A stretch of 49,278 nucleotides of DNA, counting the filler, from Jimgerdemannia flammicorona (taxonomy: Eukaryota): assembly GCA_003990765.1 (NCBI GenBank). It is 2 parts of 2 records of this genome, joined end to end, with 100 filler letters (N's around TTAATTAATTAA, not from the genome) between each part and the next. Parts side by side here need not be neighbours in the genome. Positions count along the whole stretch, not along the records: positions 1 to 24,589 come from RBNJ01000954.1; 1 more part is not named here. One strand, written 5' to 3'. The translations under genes and the position numbers were made by a program. Positions 5,901 through 41,354 of the stretch are shown here, in pieces. The notes beneath the pieces were generated by a model. That model was not told the origin of the DNA. It saw only the letters and a list, made by a program, of their open reading frames with translations, and searched no databases. Within the stretch, counting starts at the first letter, position 1. Each line of letters begins with the position of its first letter.

Positions 5901-6530
5901 ATGGCTCCTCTTTGCCATCGATTACCAAAATTGTTCCCCTTTGCTGAATTCCCCAAATTCTCCTTTAAGTGGCCTTAAATTGATTACCAAAAGTGGTCTT
6001 AAATCATGTCCTCGAGTGGAAGTGGGGAAGGACCTCAATTCCACTTGATCCACCTCTACCTTCCCCCACTTCTACTCGATCCACCTCCACTCCACCTTAA
6101 GGAACTGGGGGGAGGTGGATTGGGTGGAAGTGGGGGAAGTGGATTGGGTGGAATGGCTCCTCTTTGCCATTGATTATCAAAATTGTTCCCCTTTGCTGAT
6201 TCTCCTTCAAGTGGCCTTAAGTCGATTACCAAAAGTGGCCTTAAATCATGTTCTCGAGTGGAAGTGGGGAAGGACCTCAATTCCACTTGATCTACCTCTA
6301 CCTTCCCCCACTTTCACTCGATCCACCTCTACTCCACCTTGAGGAAGTGGGGGAAGGTGGATCAGGTAGAAGTGGGGGAAGGTGGAGGTGGATTGATCCA
6401 CCTTGGGAACACAATTTAAGGCCACTTTTGGTAATTGATTTAAGGCCACTTAAAGGGGAATTTGATAAAGGTGAATACAATTCAAGGCCACTTTTGGTAA
6501 TCGATTTAAGGCCACTTAAAGGGGAATTCA
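2971..6530. repeat. Complex palindromic satellite (about 200-270 bp modular units, orientation switches)
   Basis: Recurrent modules GGTGGATCGAGTGGAAGTGGGGGAA (and its reverse complement), GATTTAAGGCCACTTTTGGTAATC and GGAATTCAGCAAAGGGGAACAATTTTGG. Polarity flips near 3290, 3480, 5160 and 6400. Confidence 0.9.
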
Positions 6531-6571
6531 GCCAATTCAACAATGCCAAAATTACTAAGTCACAAATTAAT

Positions 6572-10063: not shown

Positions 10064-11103
10064 GTTGCTAGTCTCCTTTTACCAAAAATGTTGTAGAAAG
10101 TGTTGTCTAAGTTGTCTGAGTTTTGTGTCACCTAAATGTTACCAGTGAAAGATATGAGAAGTTATGTATATTATAAATCTGACATACTTCTTTAATTGTA
10201 TTGTTTTACTTTTAGTCTTCTTCTCTTTCAGTAAGATAAAATAGTACTTTTTTGACCAGATGGATAATTACTATTTCTCATTTTTTTTCCAGTCTTATTG
10301 TACTGAATTTGTTCATTGTATTACAATTTTTTACCAAATAGATGATTTTCTATAATATGTAGCATCCTTAGAGGTATTATTGGTGATACATTTATACAAT
10401 TCAGAGTATATTCTAGTTGAGTTCATTGGCTCTGAGTTTTGTCCAAGAACTATATCTTGAGCTTTCTAAGAGTAGTATCAATGTTGAAGTATTTTGTTGA
10501 CTTTGTTGGTCCATTTGGCTTTCTTTAGAAGTTGTTATCACTTTTGATACTTAGCATTTATTTAGTACTAACAATGGCTTTTTGTTTCATTAAGATTCAT
10601 TCTCTATCATTGGAGAACTCTTTATCACTGGCTGGAAGTAGTGATGATATTGTTCCTATTTTACTTATACAAAATAATCTTTTATTGGCTATAATTTATA
10701 TTTCTTTCTATCTTATCTATATAGTAATAAATATCTAGATTTTATCAATGACATTAAGAATATTATTCAGGAAATTAGAATAGTTGAGTCATAGATATAT
10801 CCTCTATTTGTTTATCATTTTTCTTATCTGGGTGTAGCTATGTTTACTAGTTCCAAACTAAGCCTCAAATTTCTACATATTTTATAAACTAAATTACTAA
10901 GAATATAGATAGAAAATCATAATATATAAACTATAATTTCATAATACAAACTTGAATAACTATAGATATAAACTAGTAGATACTAATAGATTTGTTTTCT
11001 TGAAGATACAGCTATATGAACTAAATAACAAGTATATGAATAGAAATATATAGTAATATAAACTAAAAAGCTATAAACTTGAACTATATTAAATAATATA
11101 TAC

Positions 11104-12274
11104 TGTAACAAACCACAAAATATAGTAATCTCGAAACCCAACCAGGTGATGTGAATATTAGTATAGCACAATAACCAGCAACTATTGCTGCAGAAATGTA
11201 TAAATAACCCAGATAGCTAAAGTAAGGAAGAACCCTGACAGTGGCTGTCATTCTGACAGTAGCTATCACCCTGACAGTAGCTGTCACCCTGATAGTGAAT
11301 GTCACTCCATAAATAGCATTCTATAGTTAATCAGATAGCAACCAAGATAGCAACCACAATGTATAAAATACTCTAGAGATAAGAGTGAATAAACCTCAGT
11401 CTGAAAGTTGAATACAAATCAAAGCAAAAGTCAATTGTCTGGTACACTTAGAAGAAATGCCTGCCAAAAGCCACTTGATCCAGGAAGGATTGCAATACTT
11501 AGGAGATATGCCTGCCAATGAGCCACTGCCAAGAAGTTGTGAGCTTGGTTCTCTTCTCTTCCACTCTGGTCCACTTTCCGATACAAAGAATGAGTCTGTT
11601 TTTGGTTTGCTTGGCAGATAAGTCTGAAGATTTGCCACCCAAGTTCAAGGAAGAGCTTCACCGCCATTTTCAAGAAGTCTGCTGATTCAGGAAGAATCTG
11701 TGCCATTGTATTCCCAGTTGAAGCCACTACTTTTGAGTTATCTGCATTCCCAGAGAACCTGTGACACCTGAGTTATTATTTCCAGAAGTGCCTGATTCAG
11801 AAGAACCCATGCCATCTCCTCTTCCCAGTGAGCCAAATTGAGTTATCTGCCAGAAATCACATACTTTTGGAAATCGTCATGCTACATGATGATCGTCATA
11901 CAGAGATCACTGCCATCTAAGAAGGAAACCACTAAATTGCCAGATCATCCCACATAAGGAACCCAGTTGCACTATACCAGATCATCATACAGAGATTGTC
12001 ATGTTATATATGAGATTCTATCAATTCCCAGATTGACCCAAGAAGGAAACCCATTTGCACAAATTGCCGCTACACTCAGAGAACCATCCCAATTAGGAAA
12101 TTGACATATAGATTGCTCACAGATATCCAGCTTTGACTACTATACCACTAAACACCAAGGACCTCAGAAATCATAGAATATTTTGTTGCTTTTGACAAAG
12201 TAACTGGGGGCTCAAGCCAAACTACATTGACCCCCAATCTTGTAATTTGCCTCCATTGAGCCAGGTATGTTATA
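11104..12274 (+). repeat. 5' LTR of element 1 (1171 bp)
   Basis: TGTAACAAACCACAAAAT...CCAGGTATGTTATA, collinear with 19829-20919; TATA-like TATAAATAACCC. Confidence 0.95.
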
Positions 12275-12275
12275 T

Positions 12276-12294
12276 TTGGGGGCTCAACTGGGAA
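12276..12294 (+). promoter_or_regulatory. Primer-binding site, tRNA-Pro-like
   Basis: TGGGGGCTCAACTGGGAA directly after the LTR resembles the tRNA-Pro PBS (TGGGGGCTCGTCCGGGAT in MLV) once CpG decay is allowed. Confidence 0.65.
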
Positions 12295-12307
12295 GATTCC
12301 AAAATCT

Positions 12308-15300
12308 ATGTGACTTTTCAGCTCATAAGAACCCACAGTCAAACTGGATACATTTGATACAACACCAACCTCTGCTACTACAGGAGAACCAGTTATCACT
12401 AGCATCTGGACAGGAAGAGAAGTAATCACCTCAAGACTTGCCAACTACCCAGCATCAGAAGGCTCCCAACCACAAGGCAGTACAGCCTGAAATCCCCAAC
12501 CAGATCAATCAGACAATATAGATAGCCCTGCTAGAAACTTTGAAGAACTTGCACAAGAACTAGAAGATCTTATCACACAAACCTGAGACCTTACAGCCAG
12601 ACACCCCACATCAGTCTCACCAATTTCACCAATAGAACCTTTACCACAACTTCTTGCAGAATTGGAAGTAGCTCCTACAAGAATACCTAGGCTTATTCTA
12701 CTTTGTCCAAGGTCCAGAACACTATCCTCAAGATACCCAAGCACCCTCATCTCCAGTGATAGTTCAGAAAGTGAATCAGAATCAGAATCCAAACCTGAAC
12801 CAGAATCAGAAGAAAGTGACAATGAAATGGCCACCTCATTGCCAACCTTTGCAGAATATCTGGAGGAAGACCCCAGAGAATTCCTTGATGGAATTGAAGG
12901 AATCGCAGCCTTGAGGAATCTTTCTGATGAAAGAAAAATTGCTATCTACAAGACTCAGCTCAGAGAACCAGCTAGAGGAATTTTCTACTAAATAGCAAAT
13001 AACTCAGATTCAGAACTAGCAAGACAGATTCAAGCAGTAATGTCTTTCAAGCTAGAATATGAAGCCATGGTCTACTGGCTTATTGAAAAGTATGCAGGAA
13101 ATGAAACCTGCCACAAGGCTCAAAAATCCATCATGGGGATAAAGATGAATCTTGGAGAATCACCTAGAGCCTTCTTCACAAGAATCCAGAAGAGAATGCA
13201 TACTGCTGGGTTCAATGCCATCAACTAGGACATTATAGGTCCAATGACCTTCATGAATGGAATTCCCCCAAACATTGCCCAGTATGTTCGCACTCTAGGT
13301 ATCAGAAGGTCTGAAGAGTAAGTAGATGCAGCCCAAGGATTCTTTGATGTCAGACAAGGAACTACTTGGAGTGATCATGATAAGAAAGAAGATAAAGAAG
13401 ACATCCTGGTCAAAGCCCTATAAGGACTCCTTTAAGGACAAGAAAGATCTAAAGAAAGAAGGCCAGCCAAGGAAGAAAAGAAGAACAGAAGTGAAATCCA
13501 AGACCTCAGCTCCAAGTTGGACTGATTGGTTGGACAGATTGAAAAACTCACCATACATGAAAATTGGGGCTACCAAGATAACAGAGGATACCCACCACAG
13601 AGGAGCCAAGGTTATCCACTAAGAGATAACAAGAATTATCAGCAAGAAGAAAGAAGATATCCTGTCTGAGACAGAGCCCAAGTCCAATGCTTCCACTGTG
13701 GACAATTTGGACACTATGCTACTGAATGTGATAATAAAAGAAGTAACCAAAGGGACTCAGAATCATCAAACCGAAGGAATGACACCCAGTACAAAAAGAC
13801 TGAAGCTCATCCTGTTGAAGATTTCGAGGAGGCAAGCAATAGTAAAGACTATAGTGATCTGGACTTATACCCTACCAAGGTTACCACTCAGAAAATAGTC
13901 TATCTAGTAGAGAAAAGAAAGAGACCTATAGGAAGACCATCCAGGAATATTAGCAGAAGAATCATCCAAGAGAAAGACAAAGAATATAAAGAAGAACAAG
14001 TAGAAATACCCCCCCAAACCCCCTTACCTTTTGTCAATAAGACAAATGAGTTGCCACCAGAAGATGAAGAAATGGAACAAGAAGAACGGGAACCTGTTAT
14101 CCCAAAGCCCAAGAAAAAGTACACCCCAAAGACCATGCCTAGAGACATCTACAATGAAGCCTAGCAGAAGATCCAAGAGGCCAAGATGGAAGTTCCCCTC
14201 CTGTAGTTCCTGCAACTGACACCAGCTGGAGTCCAAAACAAATTGCTGAGAACCACCAGATCTAGCACTGGCTGAGTCCCAATCCCACAGTAAGAACCAG
14301 TTTCCATCCCTGTCTAGGCAGCTGAAAGATATGTCAGCACCTACCTATATGGAGACATTGGAGGACAAAAGGTGAAGATCCTCATAGATACAGGAGCAGC
14401 TGTCTGTGTCATTGCCAAATGGTTCCTGAACACCCTCCAATGGCCCATTGATGGACCATCTAACCTCAGCATCATAGTAGTAGATAGAGCCCGAACTCAA
14501 CCCCTTAGAGAAGTATGAAATATCACTATCTCCCTTGGACACATTCAGTTCTCTATTCCCAAAGCTGTTGTCACTGAAGCTGTCACCTATGACATAATTC
14601 TTGGCACCAACTGGATGAAGCAAATGAATGCAGTTGTTGATATTGGCCAACAAGTACTCAAGTTTGACTACTGAGGCAAGAAGTATAGAGTTAAGGTGAC
14701 CAGCTATGAGCAATCGAAGAAGAAGAAGAAGGTCACTATTCAGGAAGAATATGCCAGCAGCAAGGAGTCTACTACAGAAGAGGAAGAAGAATCTGAAGAC
14801 AGAAATGATCCCAGACTCAATCCCCAAATTAATCTGGTAGATAACAGACTGGAAGATAATGTGTGGGCTAAGAACACCATCCCTATTACAATTGGAGCTA
14901 TTGTAGGAGAAGCCAAAGGATGCCCTACCTGCCTCAAGAGACACAAGTGTCCCAAGCATTCCTTCAAGACCATGGGAACAAGGAAATCACCTGGCACAGC
15001 CTGCCCAGAATGCAGAAAGAAGAAGAAGAAATACAGACATGTTCCAGAAACACCTGCAACTAAAGCTGCAGAAGTACAAGCAATTTGGGGTCAAGAATTA
15101 TCTGTAGAAGAAGAAACTTCTGATCAAGAAGTCCCTAAACAAGAAGCACCTGAAGAAGAAGAGGTCCCTGAACTCATTCCCTGGGATGATTCTCACTGGA
15201 CACCACCTGAAGGCAATGACCCTTGAAATACAGAAGAAGGACCCAGTACAATCACCATTATCCCCAAGAAAGAAACTTACCAAGAAAAGGCTTTCCAGCT

Positions 15301-18300
15301 AGGAAGATGTCCACATCAAATGGTCTTCCACTCTCCTTAAGACTACTGCTACCAGTGCCATTTACTAGACCAATAGGAAAGATAGAGATCCCAGAGACCA
15401 GAACCCCCGAACATACTTGCACAGTCAACTACTTTCCAAGAAATTACCACCAAGATGCAAAGCCAATTCAGGGGACAAGGCTTCTTCATCCAGATAGAAA
15501 TATATCTCTTGTCTACTCTTCCACCCACCTATGACCAAGATGGGTACCAATTTCCAAGACAACAAGAGATCAATAGTTGGGAACATCATTTCCAAGCAAT
15601 GAGATACTGCAACCATAGAAGACACCCAGACTGTCAGTACTGCAGGCATCAGAAGATCCATCTCAGTCATGATGTTGTAGTTCACACCTTGAAGAGAGGA
15701 GATAACTGAAGCCAGATCTGAAAAAGCCAGACCAAAAAGCCAGAAAGAAAGACCCTCAAGATCTATGATTTAGGAGAAGACATCCTAGCTCTCATCAGAC
15801 ATACAACCTGTCAAGGATGGGCAGAAGATACCACCAACTTCATGGAAGCCCTTGACCCTACAGGAAGAAGGGGAATCAACTATCTCCGAGACCCCTCTAC
15901 TGAAGCCAGATGGCCACACCTCAACCTTAGAGCTTGGAGGCTCTCCACTAGTGGAGCTTCAGCCTTAGGAAAGCCCAAACTCAGTAAGGATATCACTCAG
16001 TATGCCTTGCTGCACCCCAAGGCTAAACCCCCGACCAAAACCCACCCAGAGAATGTAGGATATGATCTTCACAGCCTGGAGGATGAATCTATCAAACCTG
16101 GAAAAACCTTCATGATCAGAACCAGATTAGCCATACAGCCACCCCAAGGAGCTTATATCTAACTGACCTTAAGGTCCTGACTTGCCAGACAAGGAATAAC
16201 TGTAGAAGGAGGAACCATTGACCCAGGATATACAGGCAAAATCAAGGTTATCTTACACAACAGCAGTACAGAATGGCACCAAATCATTAGAGGACAGAAG
16301 ATTGCTCAAGCAGTCTTCATGAAAATCAAGACTCCACAGTTACAAGAAGTCTCTGAACTAACTGAAGGAACAAGACAAGCTAAGGGATTTGGAAGTTCAG
16401 ATAGGAAGGAAGTACACCTCCTTCAAGTCAACTACCTCAAGAGGAATATTCCCCAGCAAGTGTATCAGCAACCAGTCAGACTGTACAAGATCTTATCTTG
16501 GAGTCTGGAGAACAAACTACCTTCGAAATCTTTGCACCACCTGACCCCAGAAACCTTTTCTTCAAACCCAAGGAAGATATTCCCCACCTAGACATAGAGG
16601 GACACATATTCTCTGACAAGATGAAACCAGTACACTTCTGAGCAACCAACCAAAGCTGGGAAACCATCATTTTGCCAAAAGAAACCATCATTGGACACCT
16701 GGTACCCTTTCTTAACTGAACTTATAGGGAAGTTTATGAACTAAACCTATTGGGAAATGGCAAAAGGTCCCAGAAGAAAGGAAAGGCCCCTCTGTGACCC
16801 AGGAAACAGCGAAGCCTTCCACCAACATTGGAGAAGAATTGACACCTCGACAACAGCAACAACTAGTAGAACTTCTCAACAAATATCAAGATATCTTCAC
16901 CACTGATTATGGCAACCTACCATACAATCCATCATACCACCACAGCATAAAAACAGGAAATGCAACACCCATCCAACAGAAACCCTATAGAATACCCCAT
17001 CACTTAAAAACATTCAAAAAGGAGCACATTCAAGAACTCTTAAACAATGGAGTCATCTGACCCTCTACTAGCCTCTGGGCCAGCCCTATACTTATTGTAC
17101 CAAAGAAAGGAGGATGGAGACTCTGTGTAGATTATAGGAATCTCAATTCAGTCACTGAAAAGGATACCTATCCTTTGCTCAGAATCAATGACCTTTTGGA
17201 TCAGTTATAAGATACCAGATACTTCAGCAATATGGACCTCTTCACAGGATTCCATAAGATCCCCATGGACCCCAAGAACATTCAGAAGACATTCAGAAGA
17301 CAGCCTTTCTTGCTTTAGGAAAACTGTTTGAGTACCTCTGAATGCCCTTTGGACTTTGCAATACACCTCTCACCTTTCAGAGGATGATGAATTTAGTCTA
17401 TACTCCCTTGATCCACCACTGCCTGATTGTATATATGGATGATTCCAACATCTATTCAGCAAATTTTGAAGAACACCTGTACTACCTAGAGGAATTCTTC
17501 AAGCTCACCCATAAGAACCACTTAAGATTGAATGCAAAGAAATGCTACTTTGGGAAACAGAAACTTGAATTCCTTGGATTTATAGTTTTGAAAGAAGGAA
17601 CACATACAGACCCAAAGAAACCTGAGAAGATCAGCAATTGGCCAATATCCAAGACTCCAAAGGAAACACTACCATTTCTGATGCTAGTATCCTACTACAG
17701 AAGGTTTATCAAGGACTTTGCCCAAATCGCTGCCCCAATCCAGATCCTTCTCAAGAAAGGAGTGCCATTCAAATGGACAGAATCACAAGAAAAAGCCTTT
17801 GAAGAACTCAAGAACCACATGACTACAGCACCAATCCTTGTGTATCCCAATCTACAGAAGCCATTCATCTTATATACAGATGCTTCTAAAGATGGCCTCA
17901 GAGCAGTCCTAGCCCAAGAAGGACCCGATCAACAACACCATGTGATAGCTTATGCAAGCAGAGCTACCAATCAGCAGCAGATAAACTATGGTAGCACCAA
18001 ACTGGAATGCCTTACAGTCTATGGGCAGTCACCCTGTTCAAACATTATCTTATTGGAAAAAGGTTCACTCTGATCACAGACCATGCAACTCTCAAATGAC
18101 TATTCAACCACAAGGAATCCACTGGAATCCTAGCCTGCTGGATCCTTATTCTTCAGAATTACAAAATCACCATCATTTACAAAACAGGAAAAGTCCACAA
18201 CAATGTTGATGTACTTTCCCACCAACCCCAATGAACCAGAACCCTGAGGAACTACACCCTAAAGGAAGTCCCTGTGACTATTAAGGAACAAGAAGATCTC

Positions 18301-19286
18301 ATCCAACAAGAACACCAGAAAGCCCACCAAGGACAGATAAGTACAGAAGACAAGATTTGAAAACAATATTAACATTGGCCCCATCTCAGAACACAAGTCT
18401 GAGACATCATTCAGAAATATGACACCTGCCAGAAGTATCAAGGAAAGAAGAACTATCAAGCCCCTCTGCAACCAATTCCCCCACCTACTCACATCTTTCA
18501 AAGATGGAGAATAGATGTAATTGGACCTCTACCAGTTACACTAAGAAGAACCAAATATATTCTTGTACTTGTGGAACATCTGACCAAGTGGCCTGAGGCT
18601 TTTCCAATAGAAATCACAGATGCCTTAACCATTGTAGGCCTTCTCCATGGACTTACACTCAGATATGGATCACTAGAAGAACTCATCTCTGACTGAGGCA
18701 TGGAATTCATCAACACCATAATCACAAATTATGCTCGAATTCACAAGATCCACCTCAAATGGACCACATCATATCACCCTCAGACCAATGGCATGACAGA
18801 AAGAATGAACCAGACCATTAAGAAAGGACTTGCTCAAGTCAATCCTACCAATTGGGACCTCTGCTTACCTGAGATCCTATGGGAAATTCGAAATACCCCT
18901 GCTGCATCAACCAAACAAAAGCCCTTCGAAATGATGTTTGCCAAGAAAACTAGAACTGCTGACCATGAGAACCTCGGAAAGCTTCTTGAAAAGAGAGATC
19001 AGCTACAAAATGAAGCCCGAATTCAGATTATCAAGGCCCAGGAAAAACAAAAGAAGTGTTATAACCAGAAACAGAAGGATCAGAAGATCAAGATTAGCAA
19101 TCAATCCTAGTTTGGAGAAGTATGATAGAAACAAACTTTGCTGCTAAACTGGAACCAAAATGGAAAGGACTATACCTTGTATACAATATCAGAGGAACCA
19201 GTATCTATATAAGAAGTATGGATGGATGTGTCTTGAGAACTCCAGTCCACATCAATTGCCTCAAAATATACCTGCACAAATCATGA
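12308..19286 (+). pseudogene. Gag-Pol of element 1 (apparently one ancestral frame, now with many stops and a few frameshifts)
   Basis: CCHC knuckle QCFHCGQFGHYATEC (about 13685), protease ILIDTGAAV (about 14378), [12 protein letters not shown] and YMDD, RNase H LYTDASKDG, integrase EHQKAH...CQK and HPQTNGMTER. Confidence 0.9.
16005..16402 (+). pseudogene. dUTPase domain between protease and RT (element 1)
   Basis: VGYDLHS, LRS*LA, GGTIDPGYTGKIKVIL, IAQAVF, RQAKGFGSS match the five dUTPase motifs. Confidence 0.9.
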
Positions 19287-19789
19287 CTCAGAGGATAGAT
19301 CAATGCCTCCAGACCCTCATCCTCAGCTCTCTCCAAGCTCTGCCAATTCCCCTGCCCCAGTTCTGCCAACTTGAAGGAACCCCCATATAATTGATCCAGA
19401 AGCATCAAGAGAATCTTACCATTGCCCAGAGGTTGCTTCAGATCTACCATCTACAAGCCTTCTACAACATTGGACAGCTATTGACAGAACAACCTTACAT
19501 AAGGAGCCCAGCCAGAATTACTCTCAGAGAAGCAAGAACTGCTAAATGAATCTACACCCTGTACAATTGAAATTTTGGAGCCCTGGTGCAGTCTCACTTC
19601 CACCTCAATAATATTCATCAGATGAATGAGACCACCTTTCAGAGTATTCTTCAACAAGTGGACATTCTGTTTCCTGAAGAACAAGAGGAAGATTCAGAGC
19701 TAGAATAGAGTGACCCAGATATAGGCAATGAAGATGATGGAACAGGCATAGATGCAGAAGCAGCTTATGCTTATTGGGATGATGACTGA
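19283..19789 (+). pseudogene. Extra ORF (168 codons) between integrase and PPT, function unknown
   Basis: ATG overlaps the pol stop (TCATGA). One frame, MTQRIDQCLQ...YWDDD*, with only transition-type internal stops and an acidic tail. Confidence 0.7.
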
Positions 19790-19828
19790 AGAACAGTCTG
19801 AGATAGACTATTCTTCAGTGGGGGCTGA

Positions 19829-20919
19829 TGTGACAAATCACAAAATGTAGCAATCTTGAAATCCAACCAGGTGACATGAATATTAGTATAGCACAGTAAC
19901 CAGCAACCATTGCTGCAGAAATGTATAAATAACCCAGATAGCAGGAAAAACCCTAACAGTAGCTATCATCCTGACAGCGAATGTCACCCTATAAATAGTA
20001 TTCTATAGTTAACCAGATAGTGACCAAGATAGCAACCACAATGTATAAAATACCCCAGAGATAAGAGTGAATAAACCTCAGTCCAAAAGTTGAATACAAA
20101 CTAAAGCAAAATTCAATTGTCTGGTACACTTAGGAGAAATGCCTGCCAAAAGCCACTTGATTCAGAAAGGATTGCAACACTTAGAAGATATGCCTGCCAA
20201 TGAGCCACTACTAAGAAGTTGTGAGCTTGGTTCTCTTCTCTTCCACTCTGGTCCACTTTCCAATATAAAGAACAAGTCCGTTTTTGGTTTGCTTGCCAGA
20301 TAAGCCTGAAGATTTGCTGCCCAAGTTCAAGAAAGAACTTCACCACTATTTTCAAGAAGTCCGCCAATTCAGGAAGAATCCATACCATCATATTCTCAGT
20401 TGAAGCCACTACTTTTGAGTTATCCGCATTCCTAGAGAATCTGCAACACCTGAGTTATTATTCCCAGAAGAGTCCAATTCAGAAGAACCCATATCATCCC
20501 CTCTTCCCAGTAAGCTAAATCGAGTTATCTACCAGAAATCACATACTTTTGGAAATTGTCATGCTATATAACAATCATCATGCAGAGATTACTGCCACCT
20601 AAGAAGGAAATTGCTAAATCACCAGATTGTCACACAGAGATCATTGCACTATACACGAGATTCTACCAATTCCCAGATTGATCCAAGAAGGAAACCCATT
20701 CATACAAATTGCTGCTATACCCAGAGAACCATCCCAATTAGGAAATCGATATACAGATCACTCGAAGATATCCAGCTTTGACTACTATACCACTAAACAC
20801 CAAGGACCTCAGAAATTGTAGAACATTTTGTTGCTTTTGACAAAGTAACTGGGGGCTCAAGCCAAACTATATTGACCCACAACCTTGTAATTTGCCTCCA
20901 TTGAGCCAGGCACATTACA
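19829..20919 (+). repeat. 3' LTR of element 1 (1091 bp), preceded by PPT-like AGTGGGGG
   Basis: TGTGACAAATCAC...GGCACATTACA, followed by TSD ATAC. Confidence 0.95.
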
Positions 20920-21964: not shown

Positions 21965-23525
21965 AGTGAGAGACAAAAATGAGTCAATATTATATAATTA
22001 TTACTTTATAAATTTATTATAATTTAAATATAAATATTATTAAATAAATATTTTAATCAATAATAAAGTAATTATATACTTTTTAGAAAATATAAAATAT
22101 ATCTATATTTGGTTAATTAATTACATAGTTATTACTATTTAAAGTTAAATTAATCATTGGCTCATTTTTGTCTCTTACTGTTATCTTAATATTCTTTATG
22201 CTATAATTCATTTTATAATAGAGCTAAATATTTAAATTTTTTTCCATATATTTATTTTGATATTCTCTATCTCTCTATACCATTTTAACTTCTTTTAAAT
22301 AATGAAAAGGTTGTCCACTGACATCTGAAACCATATCATCAGTGAGTTGAAGTCTGGTAAAAAAAACCAACAGATTGTATAACAAATAGAGGTTAGTATA
22401 GCAACTATGAAACATATACAAAAGGCAGAGTGCATTAATATTGAAAAGTATATGAAATGAGGCTGTCCACATAAGCTTTCCATTCACAATGAGATATGGA
22501 TTATTTGTTAATGAGGTATGAGTTGTTTGTCAGATAATGATGAGTAAGGTAGATAATTATGAAACAACTTAAAGACAATAGCAAAGATGATGGCTTAGCA
22601 TTAGTCCTATGATGATATGTCTATCAGATGTCATGGTACATTATATACTATTAAAAAATCACTGAATTTGACTGAACTGCTCACATGAGATAGCTTAAGC
22701 ATTTTTTTTTTACACAAACACTATCTGAACTCAAATAGTTAATCATTGTCTTATCAGAGAAAATAACTAACCTGTTTCTAGTCATTGACAGTCTAATCCT
22801 TATATCTAACAGTGAATTCATACTATAGTATGGAAGTAAATATGGTATCTTTGTCTTCAGTATATCATTATAGGGCTAACACTAATGTATGTTTTGCTGT
22901 CATTTTTGCCATTGTCTTTAAGTTGTTTTATAGTTATCTGCCTTACCCATCATCATCTGATGAATGACTCATACCTCATTAATGAATGACCCATACCTCA
23001 TTATGAATAGAAAACTTATGCAAGCAGTCTTATTTATATACTTTTCAACATCAACACACTCTGCCTTTTATACATATATATTTCATAGTTGCCCAATCTC
23101 TATTTGTTATGCAATCTGTTGGTTTTTCTTATCAGACTTCAACTCACTGATAATATGGTTTTAGATATCAGTGGACAATCTTTTTATTATTTAAAAGAAG
23201 TTAAAATGGTATAGAGAGGTAGAGGATATCAAAATAAATATATGAAAAATTTTTTAAATATTTAGCTCTATTATAAAATGAATTATGGCATAAAGAACAT
23301 TAAGACAATAGTGAGGGACAAAAATAGACCAATGATTAATTTAACTTTAAATAGTAATAACTATGTAATTAATTAACCAAATATAGATAAATTATATATT
23401 TTTTAAAAGATATATAATTACTTTATTATTGGTTAAAATATCAATTTAATAATAATTATATTTAAATTATAATAAATTTATAAAGTAATAATTATATAAC
23501 ATTGGCTCTTTTTTGACCCTCACTA
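21965..23525. mobile_element. Tc1-derived foldback: inverted duplication of the 5' half of a Tc1-like element
   Basis: Arms of about 650 bp (21965-22620 vs 22860-23525). Terminal AGTGAGRGACAAAAA motif, repeated internally. Both arms encode the transposase N-terminus (MKRLSTDI..., G(R>C)PHKLS). The spacer reads D*TVND*KQV..IFSDKT on the minus strand. Confidence 0.85.
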
Positions 23526-24589: not shown

Positions 24590-24689
24590 NNNNNNNNNNN
24601 NNNNNNNNNNNNNNNNNNNNNNNNNNNNNNNNNTTAATTAATTAANNNNNNNNNNNNNNNNNNNNNNNNNNNNNNNNNNNNNNNNNNNN
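24590..24689. other. Assembly gap with artificial six-frame-stop linker
   Basis: 44 N + TTAATTAATTAA + 44 N, totalling 100 bp. Confidence 0.97.
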
Positions 24690-24871: not shown

Positions 24872-25295
24872 TAGTGCTCCCAAACAAGTCAAATCAATTC
24901 AAATTGAATCAAATTGAGGGTTAAATGAGTTGAATCGAATTGGGGATTTTTCAATTTGAATCAATTTGAATCAAATCAAAAGTCGAATCAAATTAAGGGT
25001 CTGATTTAAACCCTAATTTTCAAAATGCAATAACTCAGTGTAAACTCATCCAAATCTAACATACCTTAGCTTGTTAGAATCACATTAATATGGTGAATCT
25101 AACAAGCTAAAATACATTAAATTTAGATAAGTTTTCATCGAGTTATTACATTTTGAAAATTAAGGTTCAAATCAAACTTCAAATCAAATTAGACCTTTGA
25201 TTTGATTCAAATCGAATCGAATTGGACCCTTGATTCGATCAAATCAAATTGAGTTTGGGCCAAATTCGATTCAATTTGATTCATCGGGAGCACTA
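24872..25295. mobile_element. hAT-type MITE inserted in the 5' LTR of element 2
   Basis: Perfect TIR TAGTGCTCCC / GGGAGCACTA and 8-bp TSD GTCAGAAC. The 3' LTR shows the empty site (GCCAGAACTGAGACT). Confidence 0.92.
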
Positions 25296-25318
25296 GTCAG
25301 AACTGAGACTAGTATATA

Positions 25319-26509
25319 TTGGCTCCTTTCTCTGCTATCTTACTGGTCACAAGGTTTGGTAGGTAATCTTCCGAGTCCCCTTTCCTCTATTATTACCCCC
25401 TCTACCTTGGGTTGGTTTGCTGTGCTTGCATGAGCATGGTGAGAGGAGGGCAATGATGATGAGTTGCCCCTTTATCGATGTCGGATTGGTGTCTTCTCTA
25501 CTTTTTCGTGGTTTCTAGTGCCTTCGGCTGTGTCTGGAGTACATCCATTTTGGTGCAGCACCTTCTTCCTTTTGCCATCACCAACAAGGTGCTGTCTCAG
25601 TGTGTCTTGGGCTACATAGGGAGTTGGCTGACCTTGGGTGTCAAGTACTCAGTATAGATTACCTGCAGGTCTTCGGTGCTTGTGGTGGGGCCCTCTGGCT
25701 TTGGCAAGCTTCCTGGTGAGCATGGTTCTGGCATAGGTGACTGCTTTTTGGGTGTTGTCAGGATGGGAGGAGAGATGGCCATCACAGATAAGAGGAAGGG
25801 CAATAATGGTGAACCAGTAGAGTGCTAGACTGGGGGCAGTTATTGGGGCTGGGGCAGGTGCTGTTTCAGTGGGGCCCTTTGATTGGTGTGGCACAGTTAG
25901 GTGGTAGGTGTCACTTTTGGCTTCTTTTGGCAATCAGCAGGGTTGGGCCCCAGTTGTCAGGGGGGGTCAGGAGGCCCAAGGCTACTCATTTCAGGCATCT
26001 TGGCTACACTCAACTGGAACTGAGAGCTGATACAGCAATATGATCAAGGCCTGCAGACTTGAGTAGTGGGGTATTGGGGGTTTTCTCCTGCCTCACATAT
26101 AAGTTCTTTACTTACCTTGACTGAGAGAACCAGGCCCTACCCACTGTGTTGTACTTTGATGAGAGTTTTTCTTTGCCTGTCATTCTCTTTGGAGTGACGG
26201 GGGCTATTCTATTCAGCTTGGGCATAGCCTTGTACATATGTTGGGTTCTCAGGTATGCGCTTTCAGTCATTAGTATATGGTTGGGTTTCCCCTGATAGTA
26301 GGGAGAGTATGGTATGCAGAATGAGGTGTGGGCCAACTAGGTTTTGCTATGCCTAGCATGGTTGAGCTGCTGGACAATAGCTAGTCTAGATTAATGGGGG
26401 GACAGTGCTTGGTGGGTAGTGGGGGAGGGTTTTGGCCTATATAGTCTAGGTTCTCTTCTAATAAAATTCTGCGGAATATGAGTCCATTAAAAAAAAAAAA
26501 AAAAAAAAA
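25319..26509 (+). mobile_element. 1.19-kb non-coding poly(A) retroposon (SINE-like), copy 1
   Basis: AATAAA at 26460, A21 tail and a TSD of about 14 bp (GAGACTAGTATATA / GAGACTGATATATA). Absent from the sister LTR. Confidence 0.88.
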
Positions 26510-26959
26510 GAGACTGATATATAAATTCCCAAAGACTTAAGTAAACCCATTGAACCTGAATTCCAAAGCAAATTCAGTCTGTACATAGCAAAGAACAAGA
26601 CTCTTGAAAGATAGGGTAAATCAGAAAGACTTTTGAAAGATAAGACACTACCACTACAATCATTTTTAAGTAAGTATTTCCTCAAACTGAAGGCTTCTTG
26701 ATATACATTGTGTACTAAGTCTCTAAGTAATATCTTATTTTCCTAAGTATCCAAAGGATCAGAGAGGGGTAGAAGTAAGAGTTATTATAACTTAGTAGTA
26801 GTGAATTACTAAGCTAAGAAGATATCAAGAACATACTGCTGAAGTTGGAACAAGATCAACCTTAGACAGAAGTAACCCCCAGAACCAACTGTGGATTCTC
26901 TAGGATCAAACCCCCAAACCAGAGCCAGAGAAGCCCTTGCCATTAGAACCAAGTGATAC

Positions 26960-29900
26960 TAGGAAACCACAGACTCAAGGACCCACCAGCTTATTATTGA
27001 TCAGGCTTATAAGGATCTAAACTAGGTCTTTAGGACTTACCACCCAGGACTTAAGAATATAGTCAGCTACTATAGATTCTACAAACTTCTCTGTGGACAT
27101 ATTGGAACCACCAGGACTCCAGAATCTACTGCTGTAGCCACTCAGGATTTTCTAGATTATATCTCACCCTCTGCTGCAAAAAAAACAGCTGCTGAGTAGA
27201 TTATCTCTGACAGATATCATCATACTCCCATTAAGATCTCACTCTAATATAGGCTAGTTGTATACTACACCTCTACTATAACTAGGTATGAGAACAAGCA
27301 AGCAGGTCACCCATCTCCTACTGCTGAATAAGAAGTAGGTTCATCTATCTAGCCAGAACCTAATATCTTCTTTGAAGGACCTAGTCAGTATGAGGATGCA
27401 CTATCTCATCAGAGAAGAGAGTCAGACCAAGACTCTATAGGATACCAGTCTGATAATAGCCAACAAGAAATAGCAGGCCTAGGAATTTACCAATTATAGG
27501 TCAAGAAGATAGAACCCCAGAACTAATCCAGCCACCTATATAGAGGTTTGGTTTACCCTCTCTCACAGGACTCTTTGATCTGATATCTAGAAATCAAGTA
27601 ACCCCAAGTTATACAGCACTATAACCTCATTAGGCAGAACAATCCTCAGAAGAATCTACCTTCTTAGGACCACTACCAATAGTCAATACAATGGTAGATA
27701 TTAATATTGCAATACTGACTACCCAGCTAGCTATACTAGCAGAGATAGTAGGACAAATTTCTGAATAGAACAAGTCAATCAAGACCTTGCGAATCTCTAT
27801 ATTCAGTGGAAAAAACAGTAACATTGAAAACTTCATCATTATAGTTGATACAAGTTATCAAGCAAACTAATGAAATGACAACTAAGTGCCTACAGGAATG
27901 CTCACCAATAACCAGAACAATACTCTTTAATAATTGTTTGCCACATCAGCAGCACAAGTAGAAACAGTAGCCATATTCTTTACTAGAACAACAGTCAAAT
28001 TTTGGTATATCTTAGAACAGCACTCAGTAACTTGGAAGAACTGCCCTCAAGTTGCAGGCCAAGCACAAACCCATAACAGACCAGGTTAGGATGACTATGA
28101 AGCAAGCCCAGGACTCAAGGCTCTACTACTGACTAAATTTCGAAATACAGTATATATATAAGAAACTTAGAACAAACTGACCCAGATGAAGTTCCACAAA
28201 AATAGCAAGGAGGATCTAGAGACCTTTACTACCAGGATGGATGCCTATCTCAAAACTGTAGGACTTACCTACTAGGAAAGCAATTTGGCCATCAATAGTA
28301 CCAGAGCCAACCATCTCTTTGCAGTTCTATCAGACTAGCTCACTCAGAAGATTAAGAAATAAGGCCTTCCTCAAGGATGTCTCCACTACTCATAGTACTT
28401 TGCCTAAGTACAAAGAAGAGCCTGTAAAATCCTTACTATACAGGTCCTATGAAATCCAGAACATAAGAAGAATAACCAAGATAGGAGGAATCCTACCAGG
28501 AGAAATGACCAAAGATATAATCAAAGGAATGATCAAAGGAACCAGCAAAACCCCAGAGGACCCAGACCTCCCACCAAGGATAAAAAAAAGCAGCTCTGCA
28601 AAAAGGAATTGTGCTTCATCTATAAGAAGGCAAGACATATCTCATTCAAATATCCTGAGAAAAGAAACAGATTAGGTAAACCCAGTAATCAAAACATTAC
28701 TGTTATTGAAGAAGATCTAGAAAAGAAGAACTCTGAGAATGTTTTCAAAGTGCAGAAGATATGGTATAAGGCTATCATCCCCACTAAGGCCTACCCTACT
28801 GATGCTGGATATGATCTCTATAGTAGCTAAGACCTCACTATTTCACCAAGTACCAATGCTATAGTATAAATAGAGATTATAATGCAAGCTCTCAAAGGTA
28901 TATACATCTGTCTTACTAAGCAAAGTAGCCTAGCCAAAGAATTCAATATTGGTCTAGAAGGAGGAGTAGTTGACCAAGGATTTACTGGTAAAATTCATAT
29001 TATCTTGCAAAATTTTGGAGATACATCATTTGAAGTCAAAGTAGGCCAAAGAATTGCTCAAGTAAATATTGAAGAAATCCATTAAGATCTTACTATTGAA
29101 GAAGTTCCTGAGCTCTCCCAGACAGACTGTAACAAGAAAGAGTTTGGATCAACCAATAAATCTCTTAGTTAAAAGGTCACCACTATGAAGGAAGATGATG
29201 AAAACTAATACAAGAGAATTGAGATAGTTATGCACCATATAGATGATGCCCTCATTCTATTCAAATGTACTATATAGAACATATTAGTGAATGCCATGTA
29301 TGCCTCTTCAAGGTTTTCAAAATCAATTCTGAAAGAAACTAAGCCCAGCAGGCTGAGGAGTCCAAACAAGACAACCCTCCTTGTGAAGGATGGAGAGAAA
29401 CTGACTTCAAGGAGACTGATAGCAATTGAGACAATAATGAAGATAAAGAGCTCAATATAATCAAGAAGGAGGATAGTTACATCAAGTTTACAGACCAAGT
29501 TCACAGATAAAAGATCAATATCTTGCTTGATAGTAGTGCTACTGAAAACTATATTAGCATCAAAACTGCCAAGAGGGTTGGAGCCTGAAGCAGACCAGCT
29601 ACCAAGAAAAGGAGTGTTATCTTTAGTGATAGTAAGACTACACCACTGACCAAGATCTGTAAAGATCTCTTGCTCATGATTGGTAAATATTAAGAGAAGT
29701 TGGACTTCAGTATTATAGACCTCTCAAGATAAGATATTATCCTAGGAAAAGTCTGATTGACTCAACTCAACCCAGACATCAACTGGAGGACCAATAAGAT
29801 TAATCTGACTTATGAAGGCAGAAAGATCACCCTGATACCCCAGGAAGATACCAATCATCAAGGAATCGAAATCATCTCTGCCATCTAAATGAAGAGACTC

Positions 29901-32693
29901 TTTTGAAAGAAAGGAAACACCTACTTCATCTGTACTATATAAGAAGTCACTGAAGTTCCAAATAGCCCAATCTCATCAGAAGCTCAAGAACTATTTGAGG
30001 AATTCCAAGATATATTCTAGGACCCTCAAGAACTTCCACCTAAGTGCCAAATTCAATATGGAATTGACCTCATTCCAGGATCTGAACCTCTATATAAGAG
30101 TATTTATCAATTGACCCAATTCGAACTCAAGATCCTTAAGGATGAGTTGACCAAACTATTGGTCCAGAGATATATTGAACCTAGCCACTCTCTATTTGGA
30201 GCCCCCATTCTATTTGTCAAGAAGAAGAATGGCTCTCTGTAAATGTGTATTGACTACAGAGCTCTCAACAAGATCACTATCAAGAACTGGTATATCTTGT
30301 CTAGGATTGATGAATTGTTGTACCAAATCTTCAAGGCCAAGACCTTTTCCCTACTGGACTTATAAAATGGCTACCATTAGATTCTCATTAATGAGAAGAA
30401 CATTGAAAAGACAGCTTTTCAAACACAGTTTAGATACTACCAGTTCTAAGTTATATCTTTCAGTTTAACCAATACATCAGCAACATTCCAGTATCTGATG
30501 AATGACATCTTTGGACCACTCCTCAACATCTGTATTCTTGTATATATTGACAATATACTAATTTACAGCAAAACAGTAGTTACACTACATCTACCTCAGA
30601 CAGGTACTGACTCTTCTACAAGAATACCAGCTCTATGCCAAGATGAGCAAGTGCAAGTTCTACTAAGACCAGATTGAGTACCTAGGATATAACATCTCTG
30701 CTGAAAGTATCAATATGGACTCTCAAAAAGTATCAGCTCTTAAGGATATTCCTATCCCTACTACCCTCAAGCTACTCCAGTGCTTTCTGAGTATTACTAG
30801 TTACTACTGAAGGTTTATTCAAGGATACTCTACTATTATAGCCCCACTGACCAATCTAGCTTGCAAAGGAGTAAACATCAAAACTAAATATATCCCCAAA
30901 TATACTCAGACTATGGACCATCTCAAGAGACTTCTTACTAAGGCTCCAGTGCTAATTATATCTAACTCTACTAGACCATTCACTCTGACTACAGATGCCT
31001 CTGACATTGCTATTAGAGCAGTACTCAGCCAAGAAGATCACCCAGTGGCCTACCTTTCCCAAAAGCTCAAGCCAGCTGAGATCTGGTATACTATCCATGA
31101 GAAGGAACTCCTGGCCATTGTCACTGCACTCTAGGAATGGTGTTATTTCCTCCTAGGACAACTATTTGTAGCCTACACTAATTACTATGCTCTACAATAC
31201 ATTCACACACAGCCTATACTGACTTACAGACAAGCCTGCTGGATGGAAATCATTGCTAAATTTGATATGGAAATCAAGTATATCTCAGGCAAAACCAACT
31301 GTGTGGCTGATGGTTTCTCTAGATATATGGAAGATGAACTTGTTTTTATAATTGAGATAATTGGAGACCTCTCTCAAATGATCAAGGATGGCTACTAGTA
31401 AGATAGCTCTCTGGTGAATTTCCTTCAATTCTGCCAAGACCTAGAGGCTGAACTCCCAGAACCCATGAGACAAATGTCCAAGAGATTCACTTACTATGAT
31501 GGACTAATCTATAGAGACCATTATAGAGTAGTTATACCCAACAATGATACTCTGTGACTCAAGATCATACAATCTCTGCCTATTCTGAGTCACAACTAGG
31601 ATCAGATTACAATAGACTTTATTGTTCAGCTCCCTAAGACCAAGGCAGGATGAGATGTCATTGTGGTATTCATGGACTGCCTAAGTAAACAAGCCCATTT
31701 TGCACCCATCAAGACCACCACTATAGTATCAGAGATTGCTAAGATTTTCCTCAACTAAGTATTTAGACTATATGACATGCTTAGCACTATTATATCTGAC
31801 CAAGATGCTAAGTTTACAAGCAACTTCTAGAAGGCATTCTTCTCTCTCTATAGAACCAAGCTGAAGTTCTCTACTATCTACTACTCCCAGACTAACAGTT
31901 AAACTGAGTGAACCAATAGGACCCTCAAATAAATGCTTAGCATTTTCTGCTATTACAAGCAGAATGATTGGGACAAGTATCTTGCCCATACTGAGTTTGC
32001 CTACAATAATAGCTAGTAAACCTCTACAAAGAAGACTCCATTCTTCTTGAACTATGGTCAACACCCAAGGACCCCAAGCACTATTGTGAAATCAGTAGTC
32101 CCACTGGCCCAAGATCTGGTTGAGACTATTTCTGATCTTACCTGAATGACAAGAGATGCTCTCATAGAAGCATAGGACTACTAGACCAAGTATGCAAACT
32201 TGAAGTAAAGAGAAGTCTCCTACAATATTGGTGACATGGTCATGCTTAGAACAGACTACCTCCACCCAGACATCCTGATATAACAACCAGCCAAGAAACT
32301 CTGTGCCAGAAGAATTGGACTATATAAGATTGTGGAAAAAGTCAGCAAAGTTAACTACAAGTTATAACTTCTCCACAATATTCAAGTACACCCAGTATTC
32401 CATATCAGTCAATTGGTGGACTACCATGAGAACTCATTTTCTAAGCATATAGTTCCACCACCACTCCCAATTAGGATCAATAATTATGAAAAGTTCAAAA
32501 TTGAGAAAGTACTTGACCACAAGGTCTGCAAATATCCCAAAACAGTTAAGCTATTTTTTCTCATTAAGTGGAAGAGTTACCCCATCCATGATGCTATCTA
32601 GAAAAAGAAAAAAGCTCTGGAGAATACATATAAAGCCCTTCAGGACTATATGGAAACACTAACCCCCCAGCAGAGGAAGGAACTGCAGCTTTA
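26960..32693 (+). pseudogene. Gag-Pol of element 2, decayed
   Basis: Degenerate knuckle LCFIYKKARHISFKYP (about 28608), protease ILLDSSATENYI (about 29520), [11 protein letters not shown] and [19 protein letters not shown], integrase core and chromodomain FKIEKVLDHK...FLIKWKSYP (about 32490-32600). Start is approximate. Confidence 0.85.
28744..29160 (+). pseudogene. dUTPase domain between the Gag zinc knuckle and protease (element 2)
   Basis: DAGYDLYS, QSSLA, GGVVDQGFTGKIHIIL, GQRIAQV, KEFGST. Confidence 0.9.
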
Positions 32694-33335
32694 AAAATTA
32701 GAGCATATAGTAAATAAGGAGGATACTACATATTTTATCTGAAACATATAATATTGAATATTGCAGAAAAAGGAATACTATAATTAATTAATAAGAAGAT
32801 ATGTAGGTGAAGAATAATCTAGTATAGTGTAGCAAAATATATTTGAATAACTCCATTTCATGCTATCTATGTCATCTCTGCTAGATGATAACAGATGCTT
32901 CATATGGAACTTAAGAAAGTTATAATGTTGAAACTAATCTAAGTCCATCTGTATGACAGATATTATTACTAAAAATTGTCTCAGATTATAAGAAATACTA
33001 TTTCTGAGAAATTCGAACCCCCAGCCATAATAATAAGAGCCCTCACCCTAGACAAGAATGGCCAGTCCTTGCAAATGTACCAACTAGACAAAAAAAAAGA
33101 GGACCAAGATCTGTCAACTCTATGTAACCATCACTGCAAGTAGTAATATCTTTGAAATCTAGATTTTCTCATATGACCAGCACATGCTCCACTTATAGCA
33201 ACAGGTCATATATTCTGCTGGAAAGTATGACCAAAAGAAAGTCATACTAGATAGGTAAATAAATATAAATACCCAAGGCAAGAATATCCTGCAACTCTTA
33301 TCTCCCTCTCCTCACAAAGAAAAGACAAAACAAGA

Positions 33336-34178: not shown

Positions 34179-34941
34179 TGTAATAGAATGAGATGTGATG
34201 AGTGATCACATGACCCAGCAAGTGATGACATCATATGATCAAGTGTGATATATAAATGATAGATGAATAATATGAAAAACAAGGCAAAAAATAATATTCA
34301 ATTTATCTCTAACAATCAATACTACAGTAACTATTGCCACAGTAGCTGATTATTGTCTAGTAATTGAGGTCCTAATAATAAAGTTGTTTTTGCCACAAAC
34401 TACCTGACAAAGGTTGTGATTATAAACCTCATTATAGTTATCAAATTAGTCACTCATACTTAGTCAGAAATTGCAGACCAACTTATATAAATACCCCTCA
34501 GTTTCCATTCAAAATAAAGTAGTTTTAGTTTAGTTCTTGATACAAGAATCAAGTTCCCCTCCCCATATACACACACATTCTCCTGAGTCTTAGTAATGAT
34601 ATCTAAGTGACTTAGTATTTCTAACTAAACTCCAGAAGTCTAGCTAACTTCTGCCAGAACTGAGACTAGTATATAAATCTCCAAAGACTTAAGTAAATCC
34701 ATTGAACCTGAATTCCAAGGCAAATTCAGTCTGTGTACAGCAAAGAACAAGACCCTTAAAAGATAGAGCAAACCAGAAAAACCTTTGAAAGATAAGGTAC
34801 TGTCACTACAACTACTTTTAAGTGAGCACTTCCTCAAACTGAAGACTTTTTGATATATATTATATACTAAGTCTCTAAGTAATATCTTATTTACCTAAGT
34901 ATCCAAAGGATTAGAGAGGGGTAGAAGTAAGAGTTATTATA
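34179..34941 (+). repeat. 3' LTR of element 2 (about 763 bp)
   Basis: TGTAATAGAATG...GAGTTATTATA, matching the 5' LTR fragments. Confidence 0.9.
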
Positions 34942-40461: not shown

Positions 40462-41354
40462 TTTTTTTTTGTTTTTTTGTTTTATGGACTCAGAGTCCTG
40501 TGGATTTTTATTGGAAGAGAACTTAGACTATATAGGCCAAAACCCTCCCCCACTACCCATCAAGCACTGTCCTCTTATTAACCTAGGCTAGCTATTATCT
40601 AGTAGCTTGACCATACCAGGTATAGTAGGGCCAATATTAGCCTATATCTTATTCTGCACACTATGTTCTCCCTATCACCAGGGGGAATCCAGCCATATGT
40701 CAACAACTGAAAGCACATACCTGAGACCCCAATGTATATACAAGGCCACACCCAAGCCAAATAGAATAGTCCCTGCCACTCTAAAGAGAATGACAGGCAA
40801 AGAAAAAACTCTCATCAAAGTACATTATAGTGGGTAGGGCCTAGTTCTCCCAGATGAGATAAGTAGAGGACTTATATATGAGGTAGAAGGAGACCCCCAA
40901 TATTCCACTACTCAAGTTTGTGGGCCTTGATCACATTACCATATTAGCTCCTGGTTCTAGTTGAGTGTAGCCAAGATGCCTGAAATAGATAGCCTCAGGC
41001 CTCCTGACCCCTCCCAACAACTGGGGCCTAACCTGCCAAATTACCAAAAGAAGCTAAGAGTGACACCTACCACCTAATCCTCCATACTAATCAAAAGGCC
41101 CCACTGAAGCAGTATCTGCCCCAGCCCTGATGACCACCCCCAGTCTAGCACTCTACTGGTTTACTATAATTGCCCTTCTATCTATCTATAATAGCCATCT
41201 CTCCTCTCATCCTGACAACACCTGAAAAACAGTCACCTATGTCAGAACCATGCTTGCCAAGAAGCTTGCCAAAGCCAGAGGGTCCCACTATAGATACTGA
41301 GGACCTACAGGTAAGCTATACTGGGCACTTGATGCCTAAGGTCAGCTGACTCTC

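Follow-up and report, generated by a model that had tools for sequence, protein, structure and literature searches.

In the genome of the fungus Jimgerdemannia flammicorona, a 168-codon frame is located directly behind pol of a Ty3/Gypsy element, and a second, differently organized element carries a further gene in front of its 3' LTR. This raised the question whether both are copies of genuine accessory genes, whether they belong to one protein family, and which role such a protein might have in an LTR retrotransposon. The window, that is, the whole stretch of 49,278 nucleotides analysed here, contains parts of two contigs; elements 1 and 2 are located on different contigs and are not neighbours in the genome. 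A first-pass annotation of this DNA had proposed an uncharacterised accessory family at the position of env in unrelated elements, possibly with an anti-silencing or nucleic-acid-binding function. For element 1 and its third gene, designated ORF3, the following features were identified.

11104–12274, plus strand: 5' LTR of element 1, preceded by ATAC (11100–11103)
12275–19286, plus strand: decayed internal region of element 1 (by Pfam)
19283–19789, plus strand: accessory gene ORF3, type 1, subfamily A (168 codons plus stop; four internal stops)
19283–19286, plus strand: ATGA overlap of the ORF3 start (ATG at 19283) and the pol stop (pol-frame TGA at 19284–19286)
19787–19817, plus strand: short hairpin from the ORF3 stop to the polypurine tract (fold of -13.1 kcal/mol)
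19817–19828, plus strand: polypurine-tract-like segment of element 1 (by sequence)
19829–20919, plus strand: 3' LTR of element 1 (TG...CA), with the 4-bp target duplication ATAC behind it

Element 1 is a complete but decayed Ty3/Gypsy element. Its two LTRs are 89% identical and differ by 111 transitions versus 8 transversions, and CpG in the window is reduced to 0.03–0.10 of expectation. Pfam matches gave the order gag (CCHC near 13685), protease (PR, near 14351), a long insert, dUTPase (near 16022), reverse transcriptase (RT), RNase H (RH) and integrase (IN). Behind the integrase, no Chromo match was identified by Pfam in elements 1 and 3, and pol of both stops after an SH3-like segment. The insert between PR and dUTPase (about 14650–16000) comprises about 450 codons with Cys/His clusters, and a second, weak protease-like match is located near 16840–17000. 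The primer-binding-site-like sequence at 12277–12295 is presumed to resemble the tRNA-Pro site (from MLV).

The segment 19283–19789 represents a genuine third gene, located behind pol of this Ty3/Gypsy element, but the copy is dead, being interrupted by stops at codons 36, 89, 96 and 142. The coupling of the 168-codon frame to the pol stop by an ATGA overlap, as described in the first-pass annotation, was confirmed, and its offset is identical in all copies of subfamilies A (20/20) and B (31/31) for which upstream sequence is present. In subfamilies C and D the overlap is longer, with the pol stop lying 14 nt inside ORF3 (14/14 copies). Since the overlap is kept in all 51 copies of A and B and all 14 of C and D, a production of type 1 by stop-restart translation is suggested. 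An inverted repeat resembling the hairpin behind ORF3 of element 1 is also present in subfamilies B, C and D.

On the second contig, the following features were assigned to element 2.

24590–24689, no strand: N linker between the two contigs (by sequence)
26791–32694, plus strand: decayed internal region of element 2, a chromovirus (by Pfam)
33264–33271, plus strand: TATA-like box, 72 nt before the type-2 start codon
33336–34167, plus strand: accessory gene ORF3 of type 2a (its relatives have about 275 codons), ending on the polypurine tract
34179–34942, plus strand: 3' LTR of element 2 (by repeat comparison)

For element 2, Pfam gave the order gag, dUTPase (near 28768), PR (near 29478), RT, RNase H, integrase, SH3 and chromodomain (about 32494–32649), the last with a Chromo E-value of 8e-4 in the window copy and 3e-8 in a fresher copy. 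Its earlier assignment as a chromovirus was borne out by this chromodomain behind the integrase and by the Gypsy order RT-RH-IN, and the domain order was correctly described as different, being dUTPase-PR-RT in element 2 and PR-insert-dUTPase-RT in element 1. A comparison of the two elements on the DNA level gave no significant match. Both accessory genes are located on the gag-pol strand between pol and the 3' LTR, as had been claimed; the claim of an identical env position holds only to this extent, since in element 2 a distance of 641 nt separates the pol stop from the start of the gene. Both are real genes but neither is an open frame in the window, the type-2a gene carrying stops and three frame changes.

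The TATA-like box at 33264 shares the context TATAAATACCC with the box in the element-2 LTR, and a TATA-like box was identified within 120 nt of the type-2a start in 47 of 51 copies. The spacer in front of the gene (32695–33335) contains short frames kept in fresher copies, one of about 42 codons starting with MDNQQ, and several CGTGAC-like motifs which are also present in the element-2 U3. The 5' LTR of element 2 (24877–26509) is broken by insertions, one of which matches 40637–43018 in inverted orientation, and a further decayed Gypsy pol on the minus strand (34936–39759), accompanied by a direct repeat of 300 nt and 34–43% identical in RT/RH to elements 1 and 2, is inserted at the end of the 3' LTR. 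A tandem pair of element-2 family copies with a common LTR was identified elsewhere (L231/L232; G000:C2614). The window additionally contains a complex array of units of about 240 bp in both orientations together with 12-bp and 9-bp minisatellites (2972–6566, 87–300, 870–1215 and 41605–42735), and a 430-bp inverted repeat at 21965–23524.

Genomic DNA searches with the two genes gave 774 first-look candidates for type 1 and 947 for type 2, of which the best 40 each were scored, and 30 loci per type were taken from the best matches. Among these best genomic copies, a single frame from start to stop was identified in 25 of 30 type-1 and 23 of 30 type-2 loci. In copies gathered via the gene itself, so that gene-less element copies lie outside the count, and sampled as best matches instead of random draws, the gene was open in 13 of 74 copies of type 1 (0 of 25 in subfamily A), 20 of 53 of type 2a and 11 of 22 of type 2b. 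The stops are scattered, and most of them (129/146 in type 1, 120/138 in type 2) fall into columns in which other copies have Gln, Arg or Trp, the pattern that C-to-T decay predicts. A stop-reverted consensus was unnecessary because many natural copies are open, and these were used in its place.

Between type-1 subfamilies, dN/dS is 0.10–0.24. Since transition bias lowers dN/dS, 0-fold and 4-fold sites were also compared. The 0-fold/4-fold ratios are 0.12–0.66 in the gene frame only; in shifted frames they are at least 0.76 in 30 of 32 values and at least 1.0 in 28 of 32, the remaining four being 0.56–0.89. In type 2, the constraint is strongest in columns 60–160, which represent the shared core. 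Both families are multicopy, coding and under purifying selection. Relatives were also identified outside this genome. Metagenome proteins of 49–85% identity, four of them full length, have both ends in common with the gene product. In JGI metagenomes, at least two loci from at least 596 candidates were found, and two metagenome contigs have the same pol end upstream of the gene.

The kinship of the two types had been proposed from a by-eye alignment with three anchors. This alignment is not significant pairwise: a direct comparison of the window genes gave a BLASTP E-value of 27, a profile-profile comparison of the two copy sets alone an hhalign probability of 0.8%, and HMMs run on the six frames of the window did not single out the other gene. 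However, a search of 1.84 billion proteins with the type-1 profile resulted in seven matches, including the two distant proteins P0016 and P0017 (E-values of 2e-5 and 5e-4). Since both were retrieved by the type-1 profile alone, their choice as bridges is independent of type 2, and both match type 2 in the register of the by-eye alignment. With the bridges included, hhalign of type 1 against type 2 gave a probability of 66.8% over 61 columns with a score of 37, which was reached by 0 of 180 shuffles (maximum 22.5); without them, the probability against this first type-2 set was 0.3%. For a deeper type-2 profile, the probability was 84% both for type 1 plus bridges and for the bridges by themselves, and 8.7% when they were omitted, each of the three lying above all its 50 shuffles. 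The profile comparison proposed earlier thus fails for the copy sets alone and gives 66.8–84% with the bridges. Anchors 2 and 3 of the by-eye alignment lie in register within the significant alignment, which does not extend to anchor 1 (QRIDQC/SQVDCL).

When the 231-Mb genome was searched blindly with P0017, the individual E-values were weak (0.01–0.15), and the top 30 loci of the 149 matches were type 1 in 26 cases, type 2 in four and in no case anything else. Another 20 loci, chosen as new, were all family members (12 of type 1, one of type 2a and seven of type 2b). When 12,054 translated chunks, a set enriched for family loci, were ranked by three HMMs, the first 60 non-self matches belonged to the other type in 60, 56 and 58 cases; for the HMM of type 1 plus bridges, all 60 were type 2. 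The type-2 copy of the window scored only 4.4 bits, below a chance match. A match at 43205–43388 was discarded as chance and sits in an LTR-like remnant. The highest-ranking background sequences may represent a third gene type. On these sequence comparisons, and resting on the bridge sequences, types 1 and 2 are very probably remotely akin. According to the best explanation, both genes belong to one old family of accessory proteins encoded by elements, which have in common an acidic tail and a helical core of about 90 residues. A possible third gene type with a YYQIG motif was noticed in neighbouring elements (flanks of L050, L057, L140 and L189); it has a weak profile match to type 1 (probability 13–16%, reversed 0.2–0.3%) and none to type 2.

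A further form of the gene, type 2b, which is 34–42% identical to type 2a, was identified in a third lineage. The element has the order PR-insert-dUTPase-RT-RH-IN without a chromodomain, and its RT-RH region is 34–40% identical to element 2 and 31–44% identical to the element-1 family. Because these identities are similar, pol does not group the third lineage with element 2. Here, the gene is present inside both 1.5-kb LTRs, after the polypurine tract (L229/L230; G000:C1205, C6642); an LTR start was identified upstream of it in 18 of 22 copies, and in 21 of 22 copies there is no TATA-like box before it. Between the gene and the TATA box, these LTRs contain two to three repeats, each of about 34 bp and with partial dyads. 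The sag gene of MMTV, coding for a membrane superantigen, is also located inside U3, as is the type-2b gene in the third lineage. From the genomic copies, three placements of the accessory gene were shown: overlapping the pol stop in element 1, behind an internal TATA-like box in element 2, and within both LTRs in the third lineage. The first-pass statement that the gene is common to different lineages stands in so far as the pol proteins are only about 27–44% identical, and the clearest sharing is that between element 2 and the third lineage. The type-2 gene would either have moved between chromovirus and non-chromovirus or have been kept from a common ancestor.

The encoded protein was compared with known families and folds. 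No significant match to either gene type was obtained in the family libraries Pfam, PHROGs and NCBIfam, nor any match among PDB sequences, in agreement with the earlier description as uncharacterised. Foldseek against PDB and BFVD and a wide VIA search revealed no fold match, helix-turn-helix or other, the best VIA Z-score of 3.8 not being above noise. Among 385 and 52 pattern matches in IMG/VR no relative was present, and tblastn against phages and plasmids found nothing. Feature matches in the ESM Atlas (hypothetical proteins, a closterovirus coat protein and a phage translation repressor; 114–157 shared features) were unconvincing. A presumed resemblance to DUF1016_N (PF17761) was also dropped: the genome contained no candidate, and the domain was absent from Pfam scans at E-values up to 1. 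In the literature covered, mostly openly accessible articles, no account of the gene family was found. The accessory gene family is real and undescribed, and it is common to Gypsy lineages.

For type 1, AF2 predicted an all-helical core of residues 1–136 with a mean pLDDT of 80 and a disordered tail. A Gly turn connects the two short helices (72–81 and 86–99) that follow a long one (about residues 34–70); helix 86–99 is basic, with 4–6 Lys or Arg in the helix segment. The last 40 residues contain 10–16 Asp or Glu and 0–1 Lys or Arg, and this acidic tail with aromatic residues is present in both types. The type-2 model, with a pLDDT of 37.5, is too low for use. A type-1 homodimer was predicted with an ipSAE of 0.35 versus 0.00 for the best control. 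Among microbial proteins, 21 of 30 solved homodimers attained this mark but none of 23 single chains; for eukaryotes, the numbers were 17 of 29 and 0 of 30. The runs agree in at least 44% of contacts, with a pLDDT of 54–56 and interface residues 34–84. The predicted dimer would be formed via the long helix, with the basic helix 86–99 lying outside the interface; its score barely passes the mark and the model pLDDT is low.

In the LTRs of element 1, palindromic arrays were identified in U3.

11236–11304, plus strand: U3 palindrome array in the 5' LTR of element 1 (four units TGACAG-nnn-CTGTCA, 18-bp period)
19954–19986, plus strand: U3 palindrome array in the 3' LTR of element 1 (two decayed 15-bp units, 18-bp period, between two TATA-like boxes)

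The type-1 subfamilies A to D all contain tandem 15-bp dyads between two TATA-like boxes with periods of 18–19 bp. The dyad is TGACAG-nnn-CTGTCA in A, GTACAG-nnn-CTGTAC in B, GTGCAG-nnn-CTGCAC in C and RTGTCC-nnn-GGACAC in D. Dyads with a spacer of three amount to 3.7–6.8 per U3 versus 1.1–1.6 in shuffles, and in A to D they are 2–6 times commoner than in the shuffles. In subfamilies E and F (three and two copies) the arrays are weak or decayed, and no clear comparable U3 array was identified in element 2.

Full gene and U3 are present in 72 copies, 69 of which belong to A to D, and in all of these 69 the helix type pairs with the array type. The upstream pol does not separate the subfamilies (A-B 0.83–0.86 versus A-A 0.82–0.85), its nearest neighbour being of another type in 22 of 37 cases, and the post-TATA side (R/U5) also mixes (18 of 51). 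Gene segments are 66–82% identical between subfamilies and 88–96% within them. Because array and gene types match in 69 of 69 copies while pol and the post-TATA side mix, comparison of the copies showed gene and U3 array to behave as one subfamily-specific block, or cassette, in a freely mixing backbone. This association may also reflect the physical linkage of gene and array, and only four well-sampled independent types underlie it, since related copies share labels. Since template switching requires homology, the divergence of the block could by itself account for the low crossover within it. Subfamilies differ at the start of the basic helix, but this region was not retained as uniquely hypervariable, since residues of about 27–42 and 104–122 vary equally.

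Two type-1 genes were found outside any element.

L222:4543–5019, minus strand, and L222:5424–5915, plus strand (G000:C2821): stand-alone type-1 genes, open, head to head, without pol or LTR

This pair is located among host-type genes (alpha/beta hydrolase, Zn2Cys6, caspase-BTB and a Crinkler N-terminal domain) in a region of near-normal CpG. Both genes are single-copy, with the best other DNA match at 73–74%, and their likeness to elements ends almost at the gene boundaries. Differences to element copies are biased to 4-fold sites (0.20–0.35 versus 0.46–0.77), a bias that selection on the element branch could explain. For one of the two genes, the three best element matches carry 3–8 stops each. 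A host retention of the pair, and possibly its domestication, is plausible.

The gene-locked U3 arrays, the predicted homodimer, the basic helix and the acidic tail indirectly support the putative anti-silencing or nucleic-acid-binding role considered in the first-pass annotation. We tentatively favour, at slightly less than even confidence, an LTR regulator specific for its own element, comparable to Tas or VANC, in which a dimer would bind the dyads and the tail would activate or shield the promoter. According to this model, a two-fold dimer would bind the two-fold U3 sites of its own subfamily, and the acidic and aromatic tail might recruit host machinery. The LTR would then be activated, or protected against silencing, in a genome in which repeats lose their CpG. 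Type 1 would be produced from the long RNA by stop-restart translation, and type 2a from its own internal promoter. Protein and site would diverge together and form private specificity groups, and the stand-alone copies could be versions retained by the host.

The main rival, which we consider rather unlikely, is a real homologous family with another job, such as a particle, host-protein or RNA-trafficking factor, next to U3 arrays that are enhancer sites of host factors. The arrays would hitchhike with the neighbouring gene because the divergent block rarely recombines. Tandem U3 modules differing by subfamily are a feature of LTR elements such as Tnt1 and give this reading a precedent, and it is also consistent with the size of the block (about 0.8 kb, 20–30% divergent), with element 2 having no clear array and with the absence of a helix-turn-helix fold match. 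However, host sites should keep their sequence, and the four subfamilies keep the geometry and change the half-sites, while the 55 nt before the TATA box stay 78–93% alike among A to D. Moreover, none of the 69 copies is mismatched, although the block contains a near-identical patch of hairpin and polypurine tract. The palindromes might instead be bound as RNA hairpins in a Tat- or Rev-like manner, either at the 3' end of the element RNA or in a leader that starts from the upstream TATA-like box, aiding elongation, export or stability. A 6-bp stem with a loop of 3 nt is possible for every unit, the array is located just downstream of the first TATA-like box, and the protein has a basic helix. 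We regard this as improbable, given that common C and D units contain non-wobble mismatches (GTGCTG-nnn-CTGCAC; ATGTCC-nnn-GGACAC), which would weaken short stems but suit degenerate DNA half-sites, and that a two-fold dimer fits a DNA dyad.

The remaining two readings concern the identity of the protein. Types 1 and 2 could be unrelated helical proteins, similar by chance or convergence, so that only 2a and 2b would be common to lineages; the null or weak direct comparisons (pairwise local scores of 29–50) and the different lengths (170 versus 275) point in this direction. It is nevertheless quite improbable, since the bridges, although chosen without type 2, match it in the same register, since the other type is picked both by the blind genome search and by the reciprocal HMM rankings, and since a near-identical EARTAK stretch is present in the aligned helix of 1A and 2b. 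An Env-like fusion or cell-to-cell movement protein, for which the sense orientation and the position between pol and 3' LTR would speak, is hardly conceivable. The highest 19-residue hydropathy in four open copies is 0.58–1.16, in agreement with the earlier statements that there is no obvious transmembrane segment and that the protein does not look like Env; no Env, Pfam, PDB or fold match was obtained, the protein is small, acidic (pI 4.4–5.1), soluble and helical, and in the third lineage the gene lies inside the LTR.

With the self-specific LTR regulator as the preferred reading, a wider and more doubtful proposal can be made. The dimeric sequence-specific regulator of a new family and its U3 operators may form swappable lock-and-key cassettes on a shared pol backbone, comparable to phage immunity groups. 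A transfer of the gene would have taken place between chromoviral and non-chromoviral elements and also into the LTR; the host would keep its stand-alone copies, which might interfere with the elements.

Several systems have been described to which this family can be compared. Sense accessory frames between pol and the 3' LTR (aORF-3S) share position, orientation, presence in most copies, conservation and unassigned function with the fungal gene; those reviewed are Env-like with membrane segments, while the fungal gene is without such a segment and has three placements, including the LTR (PMC7264820, Vicient and Casacuberta 2020). The brtn gene of Boty is described as antisense, unlike the sense gene here (bioRxiv 2021.04.13.439636; PMC7264820). 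In bdelloid rotifers, ORF3s of the same type are present in unrelated LTR lineages carrying dUTPase, a sharing also seen here, but they code for known enzymes or Env (GDSL esterase, DEDDy exonuclease), and the fungal family matches nothing known (PMC5408684, Rodriguez et al. 2017). For fungal Gypsy elements, an 'add. ORF' and a mobile dUTPase are mentioned without description (PMC2864245, Novikova et al. 2010); compared by description only, the extra ORF of unassigned function in Ty3/Gypsy elements and the varying position of dUTPase are common features.

The VANC proteins of VANDAL elements target tandem repeats that differ between related elements and co-evolve with the protein (PMC5735166, Hosaka et al. 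2017). An element-encoded protein is common to both systems, and the subfamily-specific U3 arrays are possible counterparts of the repeats evolving with VANC; VANC, for which binding and demethylation were shown, is encoded by a plant DNA transposon (PMC5735166), while the fungal gene belongs to LTR retrotransposons with U3 dyads and a putative binding. Tas of foamy viruses is a dimeric acidic activator with an internal promoter and U3 response elements that differ between viruses (PMC3798896). The 3'-end accessory gene, internal promoter, dimer, DNA-binding part, acidic region and U3 sites have possible counterparts here, the dimer being predicted and the binding putative; Tas, of 209–308 amino acids, belongs to env-bearing vertebrate retroviruses (PMC3798896), and the fungal system differs by regular tandem dyads and a type 1 without internal promoter. 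No Pfam or PDB match links VANC or Tas in sequence to the fungal accessory family.

Even if the proposed mechanism is wrong, an undescribed protein family without a Pfam, PHROGs, NCBIfam or PDB match and with three gene positions has been identified. The LTRs of simple LTR retrotransposons are generally regarded as being under the control of host factors, and sequence-specific regulators encoded by the element itself have been described for complex retroviruses (Tas) and for a plant DNA transposon (VANC). The four natural pairs of protein and site provide a directly testable matrix. If the regulator model is true, it would show how fungal Gypsy elements escape silencing in a CpG-stripping genome, and it would explain why their subfamilies persist side by side.
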